A DNA stretch of 64,000 bases from a virus. The notes beneath the pieces are model-generated. The model was given only the letters and a program-made list of their open reading frames with translations, ran no database searches and had not been told where the DNA came from. The DNA is taken from IMG/VR virus record IMGVR_UViG_3300032299_001203, positions 40,087 through 104,086 of that record; one strand, written 5' to 3'. Below are positions 3 through 60,479 of the stretch, piece after piece; position 1 is the first letter of the stretch; every line of letters begins with the position of its first letter. The position numbers and the translations under genes are program-made.

Positions 3-179
3 ACTGGTGTGGTCACATTAACTGATTTTAATCCATCACAAATTGATAATCCTTTAGGTATATTAACTTTACAAGCAATACCAAATTCAACAATCGTTTC
101 TTCTGATAAAGATAAAATTATCACATTAGATAATACGGATCAGTCAGCAATTGAAATAAACATTACAGCAAGTAGTTAA
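3..179 (+). CDS. Baseplate wedge protein gp6, C-terminal fragment (5' end outside window)
   Basis: Open frame TGVVTLTDFNPSQIDNPLGILTLQAIPNSTIVSSDKDKIITLD...ITASS* ending in TAA 177-179, directly upstream of gp7-like gene; resembles T4-like gp6 C-terminus; synteny. Confidence 0.65.
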   Translation, partial: TGVVTLTDFNPSQIDNPLGILTLQAIPNSTIVSSDKDKIITLDNTDQSAIEINITASS

Positions 180-38604: not shown

Positions 38605-40286
38605 TGGCCACTCAAAATAAAGATTCTTATCGTGACAATCCGTTATTAAAAAAAGTAGGCGTTGAACACAAATATACAGAAGAACAGGTTCAAGAATATA
38701 TAAAATGTTCTAAAGATCCTGTATATTTCTGTATAAATTATATTAAAATTGTAAACGTAGATGAAGGCCTCATCAATTTTAATATGTGGGGCTTTCAGAA
38801 AGAAATGATTAATCTGTTTAAAGATAATCGTTTTGTTATCACTAAATGTCCTCGTCAGGTTGGCAAAACAACCACTACGGTTGGATATCTTCTTTGGGCA
38901 ACCATTTTTACCGATTCACAAAACGTAGCCGTTCTGGCAAATAAAGGCTCATTGGCTCGTGATATTCTATCCAAGTATCAACTGGCATATGAAAACTTAC
39001 CACAATGGCTCCAACAAGGTGTGGTGACATGGAACAAGGGTAATGTAGAACTAGAGAACGGGTCTAAGGTTATTGCGGCCAGTACGTCATCCTCAGCAAT
39101 CCGAGGTGGTTCTTTTAACATTGTGTTCTTGGACGAATTCGCTTTCGTACCAAACAATATTGCCAACGAGTTTTTTAACTCTGTTTATCCTGTAATTTCT
39201 TCTGGTAAATCTTCCAAAATTATTATTGTTTCCACGCCAAATGGTATGAATCTATTCTATAAGTTATGGATGGATTCACTAGAAGGTCGAAACAACTACA
39301 AAAATTTTCAAATTCATTGGTCAATGGTACCAGGTCGAGATGATGCTTGGAAAGAAGAAACAATTCGTAATACCTCTGAGAGGCAGTTTGCACAAGAGTT
39401 TGAAACCGAGTTTTTAGGATCATCAAACACTCTTATTTCTGGTTACAAACTACAGCAATTAAGATATATTAATCCAATTGCCGAGCATGATAAGATGAAA
39501 ATATATGAACATCCAATCAAAGAAGGTACAGAAAACAAATCAGACCACTTATACTGTATTTGTGTGGATGTATCAGAAGGTAAAAATTTAGATTCTTCCG
39601 CCTTTTCGGTAATAGATATATCTTCAACACCATATAAACAGGTGGCCACATATAATAGTTCTTCAATATCGCCAATACTATTCCCCACCGTAATCTACAA
39701 TGCGGCCAAATTGTATAACGATGCTTACGTTTTGGTAGAAATAAACAATAATCCTCAAGTGGCCGACATACTACACCAAGACCTTGAGTATGAAAATCTA
39801 TTAAAGGTGTTTACTGGCAATAAAAAACCACAACAATTGTCAGCTGGTTTTGCCAGAGGTGTACAAATGGGTCTTAAAATGTCGCCACAGGTGAAGCAAA
39901 TTGGTTGTTCAAACCTTAAAACATTAATAGAAGGTGATAAATTATTAATTAATGATTTTGATACTTATTCAGAATTGACCACTTTTGAACAATATAAAAC
40001 TTCTTTTTCTGCGGCCGATGGAGCTAATGATGATAATGTAATGACTTTAGTTATTTTTGCTTGGGCTGCCACTCAAAAATACTTTAGAGAAATAGTAAAC
40101 CATGATCTTAGAAAACAGATTCAATTGGAAAATATGAATCAAATTGATGAAGAGGTTCTACCTGAACCCATTATTGATGACGGTACAAAACCAGATTTTA
40201 TGATTGAGGGTGGAGATTTATGGGAAGTTGCTAATGGTGGTGACACTTATGCAAATTATAGTGCCAAATGGTTCAAGGATCTATAA
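38604..40286 (+). CDS. gp17: Terminase large subunit gp17
   Basis: YRDNPLLKK; Walker A PRQVGKTT; Walker B IVFLDEFAFV; STPNG.N.FY; nuclease CVDVSEG and DDNVM. Confidence 0.97.
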   Translation: MATQNKDSYRDNPLLKKVGVEHKYTEEQVQEYIKCSKDPVYFCINYIKIVNVDEGLINFNMWGFQKEMINLFKDNRFVITKCPRQVGKTTTTVGYLLWATIFTDSQNVAVLANKGSLARDILSKYQLAYENLPQWLQQGVVTWNKGNVELENGSKVIAASTSSSAIRGGSFNIVFLDEFAFVPNNIANEFFNSVYPVISSGKSSKIIIVSTPNGMNLFYKLWMDSLEGRNNYKNFQIHWSMVPGRDDAWKEETIRNTSERQFAQEFETEFLGSSNTLISGYKLQQLRYINPIAEHDKMKIYEHPIKEGTENKSDHLYCICVDVSEGKNLDSSAFSVIDISSTPYKQVATYNSSSISPILFPTVIYNAAKLYNDAYVLVEINNNPQVADILHQDLEYENLLKVFTGNKKPQQLSAGFARGVQMGLKMSPQVKQIGCSNLKTLIEGDKLLINDFDTYSELTTFEQYKTSFSAADGANDDNVMTLVIFAWAATQKYFREIVNHDLRKQIQLENMNQIDEEVLPEPIIDDGTKPDFMIEGGDLWEVANGGDTYANYSAKWFKDL

Positions 40287-53627: not shown

Positions 53628-54710
53628 ATGAAAGTAGCAATTATTACTGACCAGCACTTTGGTGCTAGGAACGATTCAATCCATTTCTTAGATTATTATG
53701 AACGGTTTTATCGTGATACCTTTTTTCCAACCCTTGAAGAACATGGTATTAATACTGTTCTTATTTTAGGTGATACCTTTGATCGTAGAAAATATGTAAA
53801 TTTCTACACACTCAAACGATCAAGAGAAATGTTTTTCGATAAACTGTATGCAAAAGGTATACAGGTACACATGTTGGCTGGTAACCATGATACCTATTTT
53901 AAAAATACCAATGAGGTCAATTCAGTTGATTTATTATTACAAGAATATAGTAATATCAACGTCATTTCATCTCCACAAACCATTCATTTAAAATATAGTG
54001 ATACCGGTTATGATATCTGTATGGTACCATGGATTTGTCCAGAAAATTACAATAACAGTTTGGCAGAAATACAAAACACCTCGGCAAGCATTTGTATGGG
54101 ACATTTTGAGATTGCCGGTTTTGCCATGTATCGTGGCATGCCAAGCCAGGAAGGATTAAGTCGAGAATTATTCAGACGCTTCGATTTTACTTTTAGCGGT
54201 CACTATCATCATAGAAGTTCAGCTGATGATATACATTATCTTGGAAACCCGTATGAACTTACTTGGCAAGATTATAATGACCCTAGAGGGTTTCATCTTT
54301 TTGATCTTGCTACACGCAGTCTTACTTTGATAAAAAATCCAAATGTGATGTTTCATAGAATTGTTTATGATGATAAAGTGGAATCAATTACGGATATTAC
54401 CAATAAAGATTTGAGTAAGTATACCAATACCTATGTCAAAGTGGTGGTAATTAACAAAACAAACCCCTATCTGTTCGATAAGTTTATGAACAGCCTATAC
54501 AATGTCAATCCAGTTGATATTACCATTGCCGAGGACTTTACGGACTTGACAGAAGGTGTAGAAGATGATATGATTGATCAAGCAGAAGATACTATTACAA
54601 TTATTAATAAATTTGTGGATGGTATTCAAGAAGAACATATTAATAATGAAAAGCTAAAAACAGTAATGCGTGAATTATATGTAGAGGCATTGAACCAAGA
54701 ACAGGCATGA
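53628..54710 (+). CDS. gp47: Recombination endonuclease subunit gp47 (Mre11/SbcD-like)
   Basis: ITDQHFG; LGDTFDRRK; GNHD; GHFE; SGHYH; YLGNPY. Confidence 0.96.
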   Translation: MKVAIITDQHFGARNDSIHFLDYYERFYRDTFFPTLEEHGINTVLILGDTFDRRKYVNFYTLKRSREMFFDKLYAKGIQVHMLAGNHDTYFKNTNEVNSVDLLLQEYSNINVISSPQTIHLKYSDTGYDICMVPWICPENYNNSLAEIQNTSASICMGHFEIAGFAMYRGMPSQEGLSRELFRRFDFTFSGHYHHRSSADDIHYLGNPYELTWQDYNDPRGFHLFDLATRSLTLIKNPNVMFHRIVYDDKVESITDITNKDLSKYTNTYVKVVVINKTNPYLFDKFMNSLYNVNPVDITIAEDFTDLTEGVEDDMIDQAEDTITIINKFVDGIQEEHINNEKLKTVMRELYVEALNQEQA

Positions 54711-56422
54711 TTAAATTTGAAAAAGTCCGTTGGAAGAATTTTCTTTCGACCGGAGCAATATTTACGGAAATTAATTTAACCAAATCACCGAACACACTCA
54801 TCATTGGTAACAATGGTGCCGGCAAATCTACAATATTAGATGCCTTATGTTTTGGTCTCTTTGGTAAACCATTTCGTAAAATTAATAAACCACAGTTACC
54901 AAACTCCATCAACCAATCCGATTGTGTGGTTGAGATTGAGTTTTCGATTGGCAAAAAACAATACAAAGTAATTCGTGGTATTAAACCAAATATATTTGAG
55001 GTTTATTGCAATGGTGTAATGGTTGACCAAGATGCCAAGGCCAAAGATTACCAAGAACACTTAGAAAAGTTTATTCTTAAATTAAATTATAAATCGTTCA
55101 CTCAAGTAGTAATTCTTGGTTCAGCATCGTTTGTTCCTTTCATGCAGTTATCTCCGTCTGACCGGCGAGCCATTATTGAGGACTTACTGGACATTCAAAT
55201 CTTTTCGTCTATGAATGGTGTGGTCAAAGAAAAAATGGCCGTCATTAAAGACACCTTTACCAAAAATAAGTATGAAATGGATTTAACATCCGAGAAAATT
55301 AACTTTCAGAAACAAAGTATTGAAGATCATAAGAGTCGTTCTGATGAAGAAATCACCAAGAAGCGTAAAGAGATTGCCGATTCGGTTGATCAAATCTTTA
55401 CACTAGAAAGAGATGTTGAATTAATTCAAAAACATATTGCCGTGTTACAGAGTAAGATTGCCGATCAAATGGCCATGCAAAAAAAGAGTGGCAAACTGAT
55501 TCATCTGGAATCCAAATTAGAATCTCGTTTAAAGAAGATTGAAAAAGAAGTAGGATTCTACCACGATAATAGTGATTGTCCCACTTGTAAACAAGGTATT
55601 GACCAAGAATTTAGAGAAGAACAGATTACCACATTAAATGAAACTAAGATTGAAGTTAATGGTGCATTAACGGATATAGCAAAACAAATTGCAGAAACAA
55701 GTAATAGAATTGATACAATACAAAAGATACTACAACACATACAGGCACACAGTAATGAGGTTGTAAAACACAATTCTACCATTACAGCCGTGAATAGTTT
55801 TATCAATAAACTACAAAATGAAATTAATGAGTTATCCAATCACAAAGATAACCTAGAAGAAGAAAATGCCAAATTAAAAGAACTTAAAACAGAACTTGTT
55901 GCATTGGTTGCCAAACAAGAAGGCCTTGCAACCGAAAAACAATATTATGAATTTGCTGGTAATTTATTAAAAGATACCGGCATTAAAACAAAGATTATTC
56001 GCCAATACTTACCTATTATGAATAAACTAATTAATAAGTATTTGACGGCCATGGATTTCTTTGTAAATTTTAACATCAATGAATCGTTTGAAGAAACAAT
56101 TAAATCTAGGCATCGTGATGAGTTCAGTTATGCTAACTTCTCAGAAGGCGAGAAAATGCGAATTGATTTGGCTCTGTTATTTACATGGCGTCAAATTGCC
56201 AAGTTAAAGAATAGCACCAATACCAATCTGTTGATTCTTGATGAGGTGTTTGATTCTTCTTTAGATGGTGTTGGTACTGAGGAATTTTTAAAGTTGATTC
56301 ATGAGATGGGTAATGATACCAACATTTTTGTTATATCCCATAAAGGTGACCAGTTGTTTGATAAATTCAGGTCAATTATTAAATTTGAAAAGAAAAATAA
56401 TTTTAGTCAGGTGGCAAAATGA
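54707..56422 (+). CDS. gp46: Recombination ATPase gp46 (Rad50/SbcC-like)
   Basis: WKNFLSTG; GNNGAGKST; zinc hook CPTC; FSEGEKMRIDLAL; LILDEVFD; ISHK. Confidence 0.97.
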   Translation: MIKFEKVRWKNFLSTGAIFTEINLTKSPNTLIIGNNGAGKSTILDALCFGLFGKPFRKINKPQLPNSINQSDCVVEIEFSIGKKQYKVIRGIKPNIFEVYCNGVMVDQDAKAKDYQEHLEKFILKLNYKSFTQVVILGSASFVPFMQLSPSDRRAIIEDLLDIQIFSSMNGVVKEKMAVIKDTFTKNKYEMDLTSEKINFQKQSIEDHKSRSDEEITKKRKEIADSVDQIFTLERDVELIQKHIAVLQSKIADQMAMQKKSGKLIHLESKLESRLKKIEKEVGFYHDNSDCPTCKQGIDQEFREEQITTLNETKIEVNGALTDIAKQIAETSNRIDTIQKILQHIQAHSNEVVKHNSTITAVNSFINKLQNEINELSNHKDNLEEENAKLKELKTELVALVAKQEGLATEKQYYEFAGNLLKDTGIKTKIIRQYLPIMNKLINKYLTAMDFFVNFNINESFEETIKSRHRDEFSYANFSEGEKMRIDLALLFTWRQIAKLKNSTNTNLLILDEVFDSSLDGVGTEEFLKLIHEMGNDTNIFVISHKGDQLFDKFRSIIKFEKKNNFSQVAK

Positions 56423-56967
56423 GTGTGTTGAGAGAATATACTAATGCAAAACATCGAGAAGCGGAATCTAAACCTTTCGTTCAATATCTTCTTGGTGGAA
56501 CAATTACAAAACCACATTACGTGATGTATCTACAACAGATGTTTCCTGTTTATGCTATCTTGGAATATTATGCGGAATTGGCTGGTTTAATTCAAGATTT
56601 ACCGGACATAAAAAGGTCCAATTATATTCTACAAGATTTGTCTGAATTACATTCTGGTTATCCAACCAACAAATACGAAAGCACACAAAAGTACCGTAAA
56701 CACATAGAAGAATTGTTTTACACACCTGAAAAAAGACACCTTTTGTTGGCACACATCTATGTTAGACACATGGGTGATTTATATGGTGGAAAGATTATTG
56801 CAAAAAGAGTACCCGGTTCTGGCAAAGCATATCAGTTTGAAGATAGACCCGCATTAATCAAAGCATTGGATGCTAAATTATCCACAGAGTTAGTTGAAGA
56901 AGCTTTACTCGGATTCGAATTGTCTATGGGAATATTTGATGAATTACAGGAGAAAATAAATGAGTGA
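56419..56967 (+). CDS. Heme oxygenase (HO1-type), auxiliary metabolic gene
   Basis: LREYT..KHREAE (proximal His), AHIYVRHMGDLYGG (distal helix GDLxGG), Y.FE. Confidence 0.85.
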   Translation: MSVLREYTNAKHREAESKPFVQYLLGGTITKPHYVMYLQQMFPVYAILEYYAELAGLIQDLPDIKRSNYILQDLSELHSGYPTNKYESTQKYRKHIEELFYTPEKRHLLLAHIYVRHMGDLYGGKIIAKRVPGSGKAYQFEDRPALIKALDAKLSTELVEEALLGFELSMGIFDELQEKINE

Positions 56968-57532
56968 TATAATCACATTCAACACAGAAGATGCAGTAAA
57001 AGTTTCTGAACCTAAAAAACAAATTAATACTTTTAAATTGGTGGCAGAAACAGATCCTATTTTAAATGAGGTAATGCCAGAATTTAATTTTAATAATCCA
57101 CCAGTTAATCCTAGTTTATTTGCATCCACTCTTGTTGAAACATGCAAACACAATCGTGGTTATGGATTGTCAGCAAACCAATGTGGTTTTAAGTATCGAG
57201 TATTTGTTATGGGTGTCGATGATGATTTTGTGGCATTTTTTAATCCAGAAATAATTAATTCTTCAAAAGAAGAAAGTCATATGATAGAAGGATGCCTTTC
57301 TTTTCCTTTACTAGGCTTAAGAATTAGCAGACCAGCTGAAATAGGAGTCCGATATCAAGATTTTAATGGAGAATGGAAAGGTGCCACTTTTTCTGGCATA
57401 TCTGCTCGTTGTTTTCAACATGAGCTTGACCACATGAATGGAATAGTTTATACTAGTAAAACTAAACCAATGGCATTGCAATCTGGAATGCAAAAACGAA
57501 ATAAATTAATGAAGAAATTGAAACTTAAATAA
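56960..57532 (+). CDS. def: Peptide deformylase
   Basis: Three PDF motifs: GYGLSANQCG, EGCLS, QHELDH. Confidence 0.95.
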   Translation: MSDIITFNTEDAVKVSEPKKQINTFKLVAETDPILNEVMPEFNFNNPPVNPSLFASTLVETCKHNRGYGLSANQCGFKYRVFVMGVDDDFVAFFNPEIINSSKEESHMIEGCLSFPLLGLRISRPAEIGVRYQDFNGEWKGATFSGISARCFQHELDHMNGIVYTSKTKPMALQSGMQKRNKLMKKLKLK

Positions 57533-58857
57533 TGGCAAAAAAGATTGATACCATAAGTACATTATGGGGTGATGAAGAAGTTGTTGTTTCAACTAAAGAA
57601 ATTGGAACACCTGAAGAACAATGGGAAGTTTGGCAAAAACAAAATCCTATAGAATCTTTTGAACACATTGATGACCTTATTTTAAAAGAAACTTTAATCT
57701 CCGATTTAAGATATGCTTCGGATATGGATGTTCGTGAATATACATTATATCAAAAATGGTGTGAAATCAAAGAAAGATATCCCGTACATGAAGTATCAAC
57801 TATGTCAGATGGTATTGAAATACAAATAATTGATAAAAAACAAGAAGAACTAATTAGAGAAGTTAAAGAAAACTTTTGGGTACCAGAATCTCCTGATGAT
57901 TATGAAAAATTGGAACCTGTTATGATTCTTTCGAATGGTCCTGGAGTTGAAACTTGGAATGCCATTCGTACCTTTTCTTCTACAATGAAAAATAATAGTA
58001 ACATTGGTCGTAATCTGTATTATATTTTACAAGATAAAGTTACAAAAAAATATCTTGGTGTCATCTGTATCTCCTCAGACTTCTTGGACTTGACTCCAAG
58101 AGATAATGCAATCGGTTGGCCAAGAGATGTCAAAACAAAACAAAACATGATTAATCATACGGCAATCGGTTCTACAATTGTTCCGTTACAACCGCTTGGT
58201 TATAATTATATGGGCGGTAAATTATTAGCTTTGATGTGCCTATCTGATACCGTTCAAAAAGATTGGAAAGAAAGATATGGTGATACTTTGGTCGGAGTTA
58301 CCACAACTAGTCTTTATGGAAAAACTAAAGCTGGTGGATTATCGCAATATGACGGACTCGAACATTGGAAGGCAATGGGATTTTCTTCAGGCTCGGTTGC
58401 TTTTGAACCGACTAGAGAAACTAAAAAAATGGTATTTGACTGGATTAAAAAGAACCACACCAAAAAATATTTTGAATGGTGGGACGCCAAAAATCCTCAA
58501 GGACTTCCACTCAAACGAGACCATAAAAATCGTTCTTTGAATTTTGCTTATTCAAAACTCAATATTCCTAAAGAACTAATTCGTACAGAACACCAACGTG
58601 GTATCTATTTTAGTCCGCTGTATAATAATACAAACGAGTTTCTACGTAAAGAAATTACGGATGAATCACTGGTAAAGTCATTTGATACCAGTGAAGAAGC
58701 ATTGGCAAATATTTGGAAAACCAAATATGCCAAAGGTAGAATTAGGCAATTACAAAAGAAAAATAATGTTTCATATGAATCACTCTTTTATGATGACCTT
58801 ATCTACCTGTCTTGGGAACAAACCAAGGCAAAGTATTTGCCACAAGTTGGCAGATGA
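57532..58857 (+). CDS. DUF4338 / Druantia DruA-like protein (441 aa)
   Basis: GRNL.Y...D......LG.I...S....L.PRD..IGW; P..P...NY.GGKLLA....S; L..VTTTSLYG; SQY; W...G.S.G pattern of DUF4338. Confidence 0.75.
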   Translation: MAKKIDTISTLWGDEEVVVSTKEIGTPEEQWEVWQKQNPIESFEHIDDLILKETLISDLRYASDMDVREYTLYQKWCEIKERYPVHEVSTMSDGIEIQIIDKKQEELIREVKENFWVPESPDDYEKLEPVMILSNGPGVETWNAIRTFSSTMKNNSNIGRNLYYILQDKVTKKYLGVICISSDFLDLTPRDNAIGWPRDVKTKQNMINHTAIGSTIVPLQPLGYNYMGGKLLALMCLSDTVQKDWKERYGDTLVGVTTTSLYGKTKAGGLSQYDGLEHWKAMGFSSGSVAFEPTRETKKMVFDWIKKNHTKKYFEWWDAKNPQGLPLKRDHKNRSLNFAYSKLNIPKELIRTEHQRGIYFSPLYNNTNEFLRKEITDESLVKSFDTSEEALANIWKTKYAKGRIRQLQKKNNVSYESLFYDDLIYLSWEQTKAKYLPQVGR

Positions 58858-58878: not shown

Positions 58879-58907
58879 TTGACACACACACTAAATAATG
58901 TTATGAT
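58879..58907 (+). promoter_or_regulatory. Strong sigma70-type early promoter
   Basis: TTGACA-17 nt-TATGAT with extended -10 TG; CTAAATA inside the spacer. Confidence 0.8.
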
Positions 58908-58959
58908 GTGTTCACTTGCTATTGCAAGATTTTATTATTAACTTACTATGGAGTATTAC

Positions 58960-59232
58960 ATGAAAAAGCAATTATCCGCTAAACAAAAAATCGTCAACTA
59001 TTTGAGCAAACAAGAAGGTTATAACACCTTAACCACAGCACAAGCTCGTGCTCGTTTTGGTATTCAAAATGTTTCCGCTCGTATCGATGAACTTCGCCAA
59101 GAAGGTCATTGTATCTACACCAACACCGTAAAACGTGGTGATGGTACCAAAGTTAAAGCATATCGCATGGGCAAGCCAACCAAAGCTATGGTTCGTGCTG
59201 CTCTTAACGCAGGTTACAGCTTTACTGCTTAA
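58960..59232 (+). CDS. Small winged-helix (HTH) DNA-binding protein (start 58960)
   Basis: KQKIVNYL...LT..QAR.RFGI.N.SARI.ELR.EGH.I.T...Y pattern; GGAG SD. Confidence 0.75.
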   Translation: MKKQLSAKQKIVNYLSKQEGYNTLTTAQARARFGIQNVSARIDELRQEGHCIYTNTVKRGDGTKVKAYRMGKPTKAMVRAALNAGYSFTA

Positions 59233-59243
59233 TCTGTTTTATC

Positions 59244-59278
59244 GGGAAAGTCGTTGTAAAACGATTTTCCCTTTTTTT
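59244..59278 (+). terminator. Rho-independent terminator after HTH gene
   Basis: GGGAAAGTCGTT-GTAA-AACGATTTTCCC (GNRA loop) plus T7. Confidence 0.85.
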
Positions 59279-59295: not shown

Positions 59296-60093
59296 ATGGA
59301 AATTTCAATAAAAAAAGAAGATTTACAAAAGAAAAGCTTGTTTATTGCTACACCAATGTATGGCGGAGTTAACCACGGCCTATACATGAAAGCTTGTCTT
59401 GATTTACAAGGTTTATGTTTTCAATATGGTGTACAGGCGAAATTTTCATTCTTGTTTAATGAATCTTTGATTACTAGAGCACGTAATTATCTCGTTGATG
59501 AGTTTCTTAATCGTTCGGATTGTACTCATATGTTGTTTATCGATTCCGATATTCACTTTGAAGCTCGTGATGTTTTGGCTCTTTTAGCCTTAGACAAAGA
59601 TGTTGCCGGTGGTCCTTATCCTAAGAAAGCCATTAAATGGCGTTCTATTAAGCGAGCACTAGAAATGAATCCTCAAATGGATGCTGGCATTTTAGATAAA
59701 CTTACTGGTGACTATGTATTCAATCCAGTTAAAGGTACACAACAATTTTCTGTAACAGAACCTTTAGAAGTTATGGAAATTGGTACAGGATTTATGATGG
59801 TGAAACGTGAAGTTTTTCCTAAGTTTGCTGCAGCTTATCCACACCTCAAATATCGTCCTGACCACGTTGGCCAAGCACATTTTGATGGTACTCGTTATAT
59901 TCATGCTTACTTTGATACCGTAATCGATAAAGACTCTGAGCGTTACCTATCAGAAGATTATATGTTCTGTCAATGGTGGAGAAACATTGGTGGTAAAATT
60001 TGGTTGTGTCCTTGGATGAAAACTTCACACATCGGTACATATCATTTCCAAGGAGATATGCCTGCTGTTGCTAATTATGTTGGTGAAATGTAA
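59296..60093 (+). CDS. GT-A fold glycosyltransferase (GT2-like)
   Basis: FIATPMYGG; ESLITRARN; HMLFIDSDI (DxD); GGPYPKK; GTGFMMVKREVF; LSEDYMFC; H.G. Confidence 0.8.
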   Translation: MEISIKKEDLQKKSLFIATPMYGGVNHGLYMKACLDLQGLCFQYGVQAKFSFLFNESLITRARNYLVDEFLNRSDCTHMLFIDSDIHFEARDVLALLALDKDVAGGPYPKKAIKWRSIKRALEMNPQMDAGILDKLTGDYVFNPVKGTQQFSVTEPLEVMEIGTGFMMVKREVFPKFAAAYPHLKYRPDHVGQAHFDGTRYIHAYFDTVIDKDSERYLSEDYMFCQWWRNIGGKIWLCPWMKTSHIGTYHFQGDMPAVANYVGEM

Positions 60094-60479
60094 TGAGTGG
60101 TGTGAATGATTTTTCTAGTTACAAGATTACAGATGAAGTAAAATCTTCACAAAATGCAACCACAGGTGGCCGTAAGTTCGATGGCGGTAAATTACAATAT
60201 GGATTATTGCCGCCAGCAGCATTAAAAGCGACAGTTGAAATCCTTACGTTTGGTGCAGAGAAGTATGAACCTGACAATTGGAAGTATGTACCAGATTCTA
60301 AGCGTAGATATTTTGATGCATTACAAAGGCATTTGTGGGCTTGGAAAGAAGGAGAAATTAACGATTCTGAATCTGGTAAACATCACTTGGCACACGCAAT
60401 GTGCTGCTTGATGTTTTTGTATGAACATGATATAATATATTCTTTAAATAATGGAGATGTAAATGAAGCTATCAAATGA
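60093..60479 (+). CDS. DUF5664 dATP/dGTP diphosphohydrolase-like protein
   Basis: GRKFDGGK..Y.LLP; L.FGA.KY..DNW; YFDALQRHL.AW..GE..D.ESG.HHLAHA.CC..FL. Confidence 0.85.
   Translation: MSGVNDFSSYKITDEVKSSQNATTGGRKFDGGKLQYGLLPPAALKATVEILTFGAEKYEPDNWKYVPDSKRRYFDALQRHLWAWKEGEINDSESGKHHLAHAMCCLMFLYEHDIIYSLNNGDVNEAIK
60408..60436 (+). promoter_or_regulatory. sigma70-type promoter inside DUF5664 gene, upstream of gp45
   Basis: TTGATG-17 nt-TATAAT with extended -10 TG. Confidence 0.65.

Follow-up and report, generated by a model that had tools for sequence, protein, structure and literature searches.

A DruA-family protein with a predicted GNAT fold in the replication block of SAR11-type phages, a candidate DNA-modifying enzyme

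The final 64 kb (64,000 nucleotides, positions 40,087 to 104,086, hereafter the window) of the 104-kb IMG/VR virus record IMGVR_UViG_3300032299_001203, rated 62% complete, carry a gene for a 441-residue protein of the DUF4338/DruA family. We predict this protein to be a catalytically intact acyl- or aminoacyltransferase with a GNAT fold, one of two old paralogues that appear to be kept in the recombination and replication block of SAR11-type T4-like phages, and probably co-produced with gp47, gp46 and a peptide deformylase (PDF). Tentatively, we favour the reading that it is a Mom-like nucleic-acid acyl- or aminoacyltransferase that marks replicating phage DNA. Such an enzyme would act on nucleic acid, most plausibly on DNA, and would add an acyl or aminoacyl group to the bases of the phage's newly replicated DNA, as Mom does in phage Mu; the donor could be acyl-coenzyme A (acyl-CoA) or an aminoacyl-tRNA, a basic insertion that separates the last two strands of the core would hold the DNA, and the modification might shield the phage genome from host nucleases. 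DNA is proposed as the target because relatives of the protein are fused to ParB_N, uracil-DNA glycosylase (UDG) or DUF3102 domains, because a homologue in a distant phage lies in an operon with a TET-associated glycosyltransferase (TAGT) gene, and because the insertion is basic.

The gene is a clean open reading frame (ORF) of 441 codons, opposite which the other strand is rich in stops. An earlier note on this DNA, made from the letters alone, had assigned its product to DUF4338 by motifs, and a profile search agrees with that assignment: Pfam PF14236 (DruA/DUF4338) matches with E 4.1e-19 and 69.3 bits, above the curated cut-off of 27, over residues 155–372 and profile positions 77–296 of 297. 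Matches were also obtained to PADLOC DruA1 (E 2.5e-16) and to the function-unknown family phrog_19197 (E 4.8e-28), and an NCBIfam search returned no match for the phage protein, nor for true DruA. DruA encoded on the Nitrosococcus watsonii plasmid pNWAT01 aligns by BLASTP with E 1e-16 and 23% identity, phage residues 98–391 pairing with 66–360. On Nitrosococcus and Ralstonia plasmids, true DruA genes are followed by genes for very large DEAD/DEAH helicases, the one encoded after the pNWAT01 gene being 1849 residues long. A DruE-type PF09369 (MZB/DUF1998) domain was found neither in the 104-kb record nor in the complete genomes of Mosig, HTVC008M, S-CAM9 and S-SSM7 or in a sixth phage record, with the control genomes matching, and DruB, DruC and DruD were not among the Pfam-identified flanking genes, although no search with DruB–D profiles was made. 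With no MZB/DUF1998 match in the record and flanking genes all of other identity, the earlier description of the gene as stand-alone holds. The phage protein belongs to the DruA family and is not part of a Druantia system.

The motifs from which the assignment had started are real and form the conserved core of the family: GR..L (G159), RD..IGW (R190), GGKLLA (G228, K230, L231), TTTSLYG (T258, G263), SQY (S271, Y273) and W..G (G283). All of these residues are invariant in an alignment of 13 sequences, comprising the window protein, its homologues from Mosig and HTVC008M, three cyanophage copies, the copy on the viral contig L086 described below, four fusion proteins and, from Druantia I operons, two genuine DruA sequences; with G176, P221 and R403 they make up 13 invariant positions. 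Pairwise ratios of nonsynonymous to synonymous substitution (dN/dS) against five orthologues range from 0.06 to 0.13, indicating that the gene is under strongly purifying selection. Because of the 13 invariant residues and these low ratios, the phage copies, the fused forms and true DruA are best described as versions of one conserved, putative enzyme. The family is also large, with near relatives in metagenomes forming at least 3,500 clusters and more at 90% identity and the wider DUF4338 family forming 886 clusters at 50% identity (E up to 1e-3). In BFVD, predicted structures of giant-virus proteins resemble the phage model over its whole length (Foldseek E 2.8e-19 to 3.6e-9), and the family is therefore tied neither to Druantia nor to prokaryotic hosts. 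These matches are A0A3G4ZXG3 (Faunusvirus), A0A5K0UAJ3 (Yasminevirus, 1260 aa) and A0A3G4ZRA1 (Dasosvirus, 1157 aa), two of the three being embedded in much larger proteins.

A scan of IMG/VR found 80 related loci, nearly all of which keep the order gp47–gp46–(heme oxygenase)–PDF–DUF4338–winged helix–glycosyltransferase (GT)–diphosphohydrolase–gp45–gp44–gp62–regA; in one subgroup ~4 kb are inserted after the DUF4338 gene. Judged from this gene order, the DUF4338 gene belongs to the stable core of the replication block and is no sporadic capture. A second, shorter paralogue of ~375 residues lies ~13–23 kb from the first in three complete relatives, HTVC008M and the records G002 (100% complete) and G003, and is missing from Mosig and from a further relative, G004, each of which has a single DUF4338 copy. 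In the record under study its expected place is past the contig end. The second paralogue of HTVC008M and G002 is orthologous, at 45–50% identity, to the cyanophage copies, which are located between gp44 and gp62 in cyanomyophages; its BLASTP identity to the window protein is only 27–34%.

These observations bear on the proposal, made in the earlier note, that the protein is a counter-defence decoy or inhibitor, that is, a DruA look-alike titrating or poisoning host Druantia type I complexes. Phages are known to copy defence components, and the homology to DruA over the whole core, together with the lack of DruE in six phage records, speaks for such a role. Against it, the catalytic-looking residues, which a decoy could lose, are all invariant and the gene is under purifying selection; the family runs deep in viruses and is diverse there, with its 886 clusters and two old paralogues; its nearest relatives are fused enzymes rather than DruA proper; giant viruses, whose eukaryotic hosts are not known to carry Druantia, also have proteins related in fold; and the streamlined genomes of SAR11 contain few defence systems. 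We therefore disfavour the decoy proposal and consider it highly improbable.

To describe the fold, we used an AlphaFold2 model built from 60 diverse homologues, with a mean predicted local distance difference test score (pLDDT) of 92.5 and a predicted template modelling score (pTM) of 0.89. In an all-PDB VIA structural search with this model the best 50 chains were all GNATs (Z 7.8–9.9, over residues ~122–385). Mom of phage Mu (8bv8_B) came first, with Z 9.9, a root-mean-square deviation of 3.9 and 170 residues aligned over model residues 122–374, followed by AAC(6')-Ib with Z 9.2 and 149 aligned residues and by further entries with ~145–149. A second-look search restricted to Foldseek's top 1,000 chains left the order unchanged, with SpeG at Z 9.5, and Foldseek itself against the PDB gave weak matches that were consistently GNATs, Mom being the eighth. 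Entries less than one Z unit apart are treated as tied throughout. In the model, then, the protein has a GNAT fold, and Mom is nominally the closest solved structure and the one covering the most residues. DUF4338 has already been called a GNAT domain, fused to DndF, by the Aravind laboratory (PMC10853773).

The predicted GNAT core is flanked by an acidic N-terminal and a C-terminal helical region and interrupted by a basic insertion: the isoelectric points of the N-terminal region, the core, the insertion and the C-terminal region are 4.4, 9.0, 10.1 and 8.8, respectively. The insertion, of ~70 residues (285–356), is placed by the model between the last two core strands, and from strand order alone its position seems to correspond to that of Mom's essential helix-turn-helix (HTH)-like insertion (residues 175–209), which the authors of that structure modelled in the DNA major groove (PMC13219725). 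Ahead of the helix at 228–235, the stretch Q220-P221-x-G223 ... G228-G229-K230 resembles the CoA loop of GNATs (reference pyrophosphate-binding motif Q/R-x-x-G-x-G/A) but is longer, and the invariant Y273 in S-x-Y may correspond to the GNAT motif-B tyrosine. The N-terminal region probably packs on the core. A winged-helix identity, which we also considered for it, was not supported: residues 20–129 folded alone (pLDDT 90.9, pTM 0.52) had no PDB match above Z 3.8. Searching the 60-sequence profile against PDB sequences returned chance coiled-coil matches only, with E above 0.7, and an Atlas search from which the DruA clusters had been removed gave a 0.83 lead to PF22559 (GNAT-phage-like), which lies under the trusted level and was set aside.

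Evidence for a DNA target comes from the company that DUF4338 domains keep. Among 20 longer family members scanned, an N-terminal ParB_N domain was present in seven, DUF3102 in three and a UDG-superfamily domain in one; five longer family proteins of 885–1220 aa had no second Pfam domain. The fused forms match the window protein with E 1e-37 to 8e-76 in a library search, at identities of up to 42%, and they, rather than DruA (pairwise BLASTP E 1e-16, the two E values being on different scales), are its nearest relatives. In known Pfam architectures, ParB_N is often joined to DNA methyltransferases in phages, and UDG is a base-flipping DNA enzyme. The UDG fusion, P0146, is a 640-aa protein on a 3.8-kb metagenome contig, with a UDG-superfamily domain (E 1.5e-8) and a DUF4338 domain sharing 42% identity with the window protein. 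One ParB_N–DUF4338 fusion, of 602 aa, is encoded on a 643-kb contig of the Marinimicrobia single-amplified genome AG-895-O20 (L090:7885-11809), preceded by tyrosine integrase and serine resolvase genes; because it directly follows these two genes, it seems to be carried by an integrated mobile element in this marine bacterium. Near the phage copies, a tblastn search with eight ParB_N-bearing N-termini found no ParB-like gene.

The TAGT link is found on a 131-kb viral contig (IMGVR_UViG_3300008952_002242, L086:4944-8523), where three overlapping genes begin with a DUF4338 homologue that is 33% identical to the window protein. The second gene encodes 532 aa, its start overlapping the DUF4338 stop, and its likeness to a GHKL (HATPase_c_3) ATPase is an Atlas language-model lead only. 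The third overlaps the second and matches Pfam TAGT at 1e-18 and the PHROG family beta-glucosyl-HMC-alpha-glucosyltransferase at 5e-27. Immediately upstream of the DUF4338 copy is a phrog_452 endonuclease gene. By its gene content, this locus looks like a candidate DNA-hypermodification cassette, and the same arrangement is expected in a second contig, L084. A BLASTP comparison of the window's GT with the TAGT gene on L086 found no similarity, and no PF20691 match was present in the window's record.

Several results weigh against a Mom-like DNA-marking enzyme. In Z, Mom leads by less than one unit, with SpeG, AAC(6')-Ib and further acetyltransferases of small molecules or proteins close behind, and therefore the fold alone names no substrate. 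The Pfam Mom profile (PF25680), which recognises Mu Mom at 2.4e-75, does not pick up the phage protein even with E values up to 1 admitted, and hhalign of the 60-sequence DUF4338 profile against a 33-sequence Mom profile gave a probability of 0.1%. Searches of five phage records for ThyA-type and TET/JBP genes returned nothing, the TET/JBP search being run without a positive control, so that a classical hydroxymethyl-pyrimidine acceptor for the GT is not evident. No glycosyltransferase gene adjoins the orthologues of the second paralogue in cyanophages, and the PDF whose gene is coupled to the DUF4338 gene in nearly all pelagimyophage contigs acts on proteins. ARAGORN found no tRNA in the window, and in relatives there was none within 1.5 kb of either paralogue. 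Modified DNA is, moreover, not known to have been reported from pelagimyophages, a point on which no literature search was made.

From these comparisons, the phage DUF4338 protein falls outside the Mom family, and any kinship between the two would lie at the level of the superfamily. A single-sequence hhalign comparison with Mom gave a 17-residue local match (QRGIYF with QRGVYL) at a probability of 1.4%, which we rejected as evidence. As for the tRNA, Rfam found none near the DUF4338 gene at E up to 1, and relaxed ARAGORN settings gave scattered low-score matches, none of them tRNA-Gly. G002 has an ordinary array of seven tRNAs between its paralogues, ~8 kb downstream, including a tRNA-Gly(UCC) of 68 bits. 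The idea of an aminoacyl-tRNA donor gains nothing from the pelagimyophage lineage.

The ties among the structural matches bring in another explanation, an acyltransferase whose target is RNA, aminoacyl-tRNA or some small molecule, for instance a nucleotide or a polyamine, modelled on the GNAT toxins that acetylate charged tRNA and on polyamine acetyltransferases. The Z score of Mom is tied with those of SpeG and of aminoglycoside acetyltransferases, the tRNA-dependent FemA is among the structural matches (Z 8.2), and a gene resembling purine dNTP diphosphohydrolases is a conserved neighbour. The argument shares the weakness of every fold-only inference, and the ParB_N, UDG, DndF and TAGT context favours DNA over small molecules; a large basic insertion and extra N- and C-terminal regions are, moreover, atypical of small-molecule GNATs. 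We regard this explanation as quite unlikely.

Of the three readings offered in the earlier note, the evidence thus favours a Mom/GNAT-like DNA-modifying enzyme, which is partly supported. In its favour stand the GNAT fold, the nominal first place of Mom, the ParB_N and UDG fusions and the TAGT coupling; membership of the Mom family failed at the sequence level, and in the structural comparison Mom is tied with other GNATs by a lead of less than one Z unit. For another of the three, an inter-phage weapon, the evidence speaks neither for nor against. A broader proposal is that DUF4338/DruA is a second, Mom-independent GNAT class that acylates or aminoacylates DNA bases, so that pelagimyophages would carry a new DNA modification, perhaps extended by the GT, and DruA would be the DNA-marking or DNA-probing part of Druantia I. 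We hold this to be doubtful.

The gene lies in a genome of T4 type: the window encodes gp23, a prohead scaffold protein, UvsY, UvsW, gp47, gp46, gp45, gp44, gp62 and RegA, and the lytic phage named in the earlier note fits the gp23, UvsY, UvsW, gp46/47, gp45/44/62 and RegA genes of this set. Its nearest isolates, as judged by the DUF4338 protein, are the Pelagibacter phages Mosig (57.5% identity) and HTVC008M (56%), both with PDF directly upstream. Because these closest isolates infect Pelagibacter, we assign the genome, on its genes, to a marine T4-like phage of the SAR11-infecting type. The features around the gene are collected in Table 1.

Table 1 Features of the DUF4338 locus, location of the second paralogue in related phages and predicted layout of the window protein
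Feature	Location	Strand	Basis and remarks
gp47 (Metallophos), gp46 (SMC_N/AAA_23), heme oxygenase	53628..56967	+	Pfam; ORFs overlapping end to start
Peptide deformylase (PDF)	56960..57532	+	Pfam Pep_deformylase E 3.3e-34
DUF4338/DruA-family GNAT-fold protein (predicted fold), type-1 ('long') paralogue of pelagimyophages	57532..58857	+	441 aa; Pfam, PADLOC, PHROG, AlphaFold2 model
Sigma70-type promoter-like site, TTGACA-17-TGnTATGAT	58879..58907	+	Consensus scan, 11/12 matches; consensus match only
Small winged-helix protein (HTH_39)	58948..59232	+	Pfam E 2.9e-9; phrog_4973; conserved downstream neighbour
Strong terminator-like hairpin after the winged-helix gene	59244-59271		Terminator scan
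Glycosyltransferase-like protein	59296..60093	+	phrog_1574 E 1.2e-62 (function-unknown family); conserved neighbour
dATP/dGTP diphosphohydrolase N-terminal-domain protein (DUF5664 type)	60093..60479	+	dGTP_diPhyd_N E 9.2e-34; phrog_801 E 2.5e-44
Second, shorter DUF4338 paralogue	G002:C1:95914-96888; HTVC008M:99739-100635; G003:C1:105569-106426		
Disordered N-terminus	Residues 1-16		Predicted
Acidic helical N-terminal region	Residues ~27-126		Predicted
GNAT core	Residues 127-284		Predicted
Basic helical insertion	Residues 285-356		Predicted
Last strand and C-terminal helices	Residues 357-441		Predicted

The stop codon of the PDF gene overlaps the start of the DUF4338 gene (TAATG), and because of this overlap the two genes are probably translationally coupled. 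Since the genes from gp47 onwards overlap end to start, the DUF4338 enzyme should be made together with the products of the recombination nuclease genes. PDF is directly upstream of the DUF4338 gene in nearly all of the 80 contigs, L070 being without it. This linkage is one argument for a protein acyltransferase serving host takeover or phage protein maturation, for example by acylating N-termini exposed by the co-translated PDF, or by modifying a host enzyme as Rac does. The N-terminal acetyltransferases RimI, NatA, Naa50 and Naa60 are among the tied structural matches (Z 8–9), and phage GNATs that acetylate host proteins are known, such as Rac of phiKMV-type phages, which modifies the alpha subunit of the host RNA polymerase, as cited in PMC7824862. 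The PDF linkage is, however, limited to one close phage group and may reflect inherited order, and L070 lacks it; the fusion partners of close relatives are DNA-handling rather than protein-targeting; and the second paralogue and its cyanophage orthologues lie among clamp-loader and helicase genes with no PDF near. A protein target is, in our estimate, unlikely.

On its downstream side the DUF4338 gene is followed by a 90-nt gap that contains the promoter-like site, which suggests that the winged-helix gene opens a new transcription unit from this putative promoter. The GT-like protein has two Pfam matches, both below the cut-off (Anp1, E 0.0036; Glyco_transf_8, E 0.14), and the diphosphohydrolase-like gene overlaps both the GT gene and gp45. 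Because first the promoter-like site and then the terminator-like hairpin stand between, the GT-like and diphosphohydrolase genes, while syntenic with the DUF4338 gene, probably belong to separate transcription units. The earlier note had the protein acting with the nearby GT and dNTPase. Of this, the neighbourhood stands, with the gene order kept in 80 contigs, while the two intervening signals and the ~4 kb inserted between the genes in some relatives speak against joint action, for which synteny is the sole support.

The winged-helix neighbour enters into a further explanation, a phage-borne defence or exclusion module in which the DruA-type protein, perhaps with the winged-helix protein, senses or marks competing phage DNA. 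DruA acts in bacterial defence, the small winged-helix gene is a conserved neighbour, and the phrog_452 nuclease gene upstream of the copy on L086 would suit such a module. In the window's own lineage, though, no effector helicase or nuclease is linked to the gene, which behaves as a stable core of the replication block and not as a variable accessory. This explanation appears very improbable to us.

Three further features of these phages were noted. The heme oxygenase gene (56419-56967), between gp46 and PDF, recurs in few of the 80 related contigs (L010, L021, L048), the remaining contigs having nothing or another gene at this position, a variable element of an otherwise fixed block. Between gp44 and gp62, the slot that holds DUF4338 in cyanomyophages, the window has a 150-aa ORF (window:62363-62815) that is present only in some relatives and has no Pfam or PHROG match. 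In the complete relative G002, an Rfam abiF RNA motif lies at C1:2049-2085 (44.3 bits against a gathering score of 37).

DUF4338 genes in phages and the GNAT fold of the family are already known, from the GenBank entry of Mosig, the Phold preprint and the work of the Aravind laboratory (PMC10853773). New here are the split into two paralogues, the evidence from fusions and neighbourhoods that points to DNA, and the negative tests for membership of the Mom family and for a nearby tRNA-Gly. DruA is a defining part of Druantia type I, and we found no published DruA biochemistry in the literature searched. The lineage described here offers a stand-alone, strongly conserved and, by prediction, apparently active version of DruA in cultivable phages, namely HTVC008M and Mosig on Pelagibacter HTCC1062, and the ParB_N and UDG fusions of its relatives, with the link to a DNA glycosyltransferase, make the function of DruA directly testable. 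Pelagimyophages are among the most abundant viruses of the sea. If the protein does modify DNA, these very abundant marine viruses would carry a new base modification, which would also hint at the basis on which Druantia I distinguishes self DNA from non-self. If DUF4338 is indeed a class for DNA-base acylation, DruA would parallel the methylases and deazaguanine enzymes that stand beside related helicases in DISARM and Dpd. Should the target turn out to be a protein or a small molecule, a function would still be assigned to a family of hundreds of diverse clusters.

Compared with DruA of Druantia I (DUF4338, PF14236; the first gene of DruABCDE), the phage protein is homologous over the core, shares the 13 invariant residues and is similar in length and layout. 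It differs in having no DruE gene, and no DruB–D among the identified flanking genes, in its N- and C-terminal regions, in being encoded by a lytic T4-like phage within the replication block, and in being nearer to the ParB_N-, UDG- and DUF3102-fused forms. The family name by itself explains nothing about function. The second comparison is with Mom of phage Mu (PF25680; 8bv8). This GNAT, whose essential residues are R111, S124, D149 and R151, takes glycine from Gly-tRNAGly and attaches it to adenine N6 in double-stranded DNA (PMC13219725). Mom and the phage protein have in common a GNAT core, predicted in the latter, a phage origin, a helical insertion after the second-to-last core strand (as given in the Mom paper and in our model) and relatives fused to nucleic-acid-handling domains, Mom–restriction endonuclease fusions being described in PMC7824862. 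Unlike Mom, the phage protein has an insertion about twice as long, an extra acidic N-terminal region of ~125 residues and additional C-terminal helices; no sequence or profile similarity between the two was detected, and no Com-like regulator or tRNA link was found. The closest counterpart is the Mosig protein QOI68986.1, annotated 'DUF4338 domain-containing protein', an orthologue with 57.5% identity and the same neighbours. Six Synechococcus phages have DruA-like structures at a TM score of 0.73 according to the Phold preprint (10.1101/2025.08.05.668817); these myophage proteins belong to the DUF4338 family too, but they are orthologues of the second, shorter paralogue and are encoded between gp44 and gp62.

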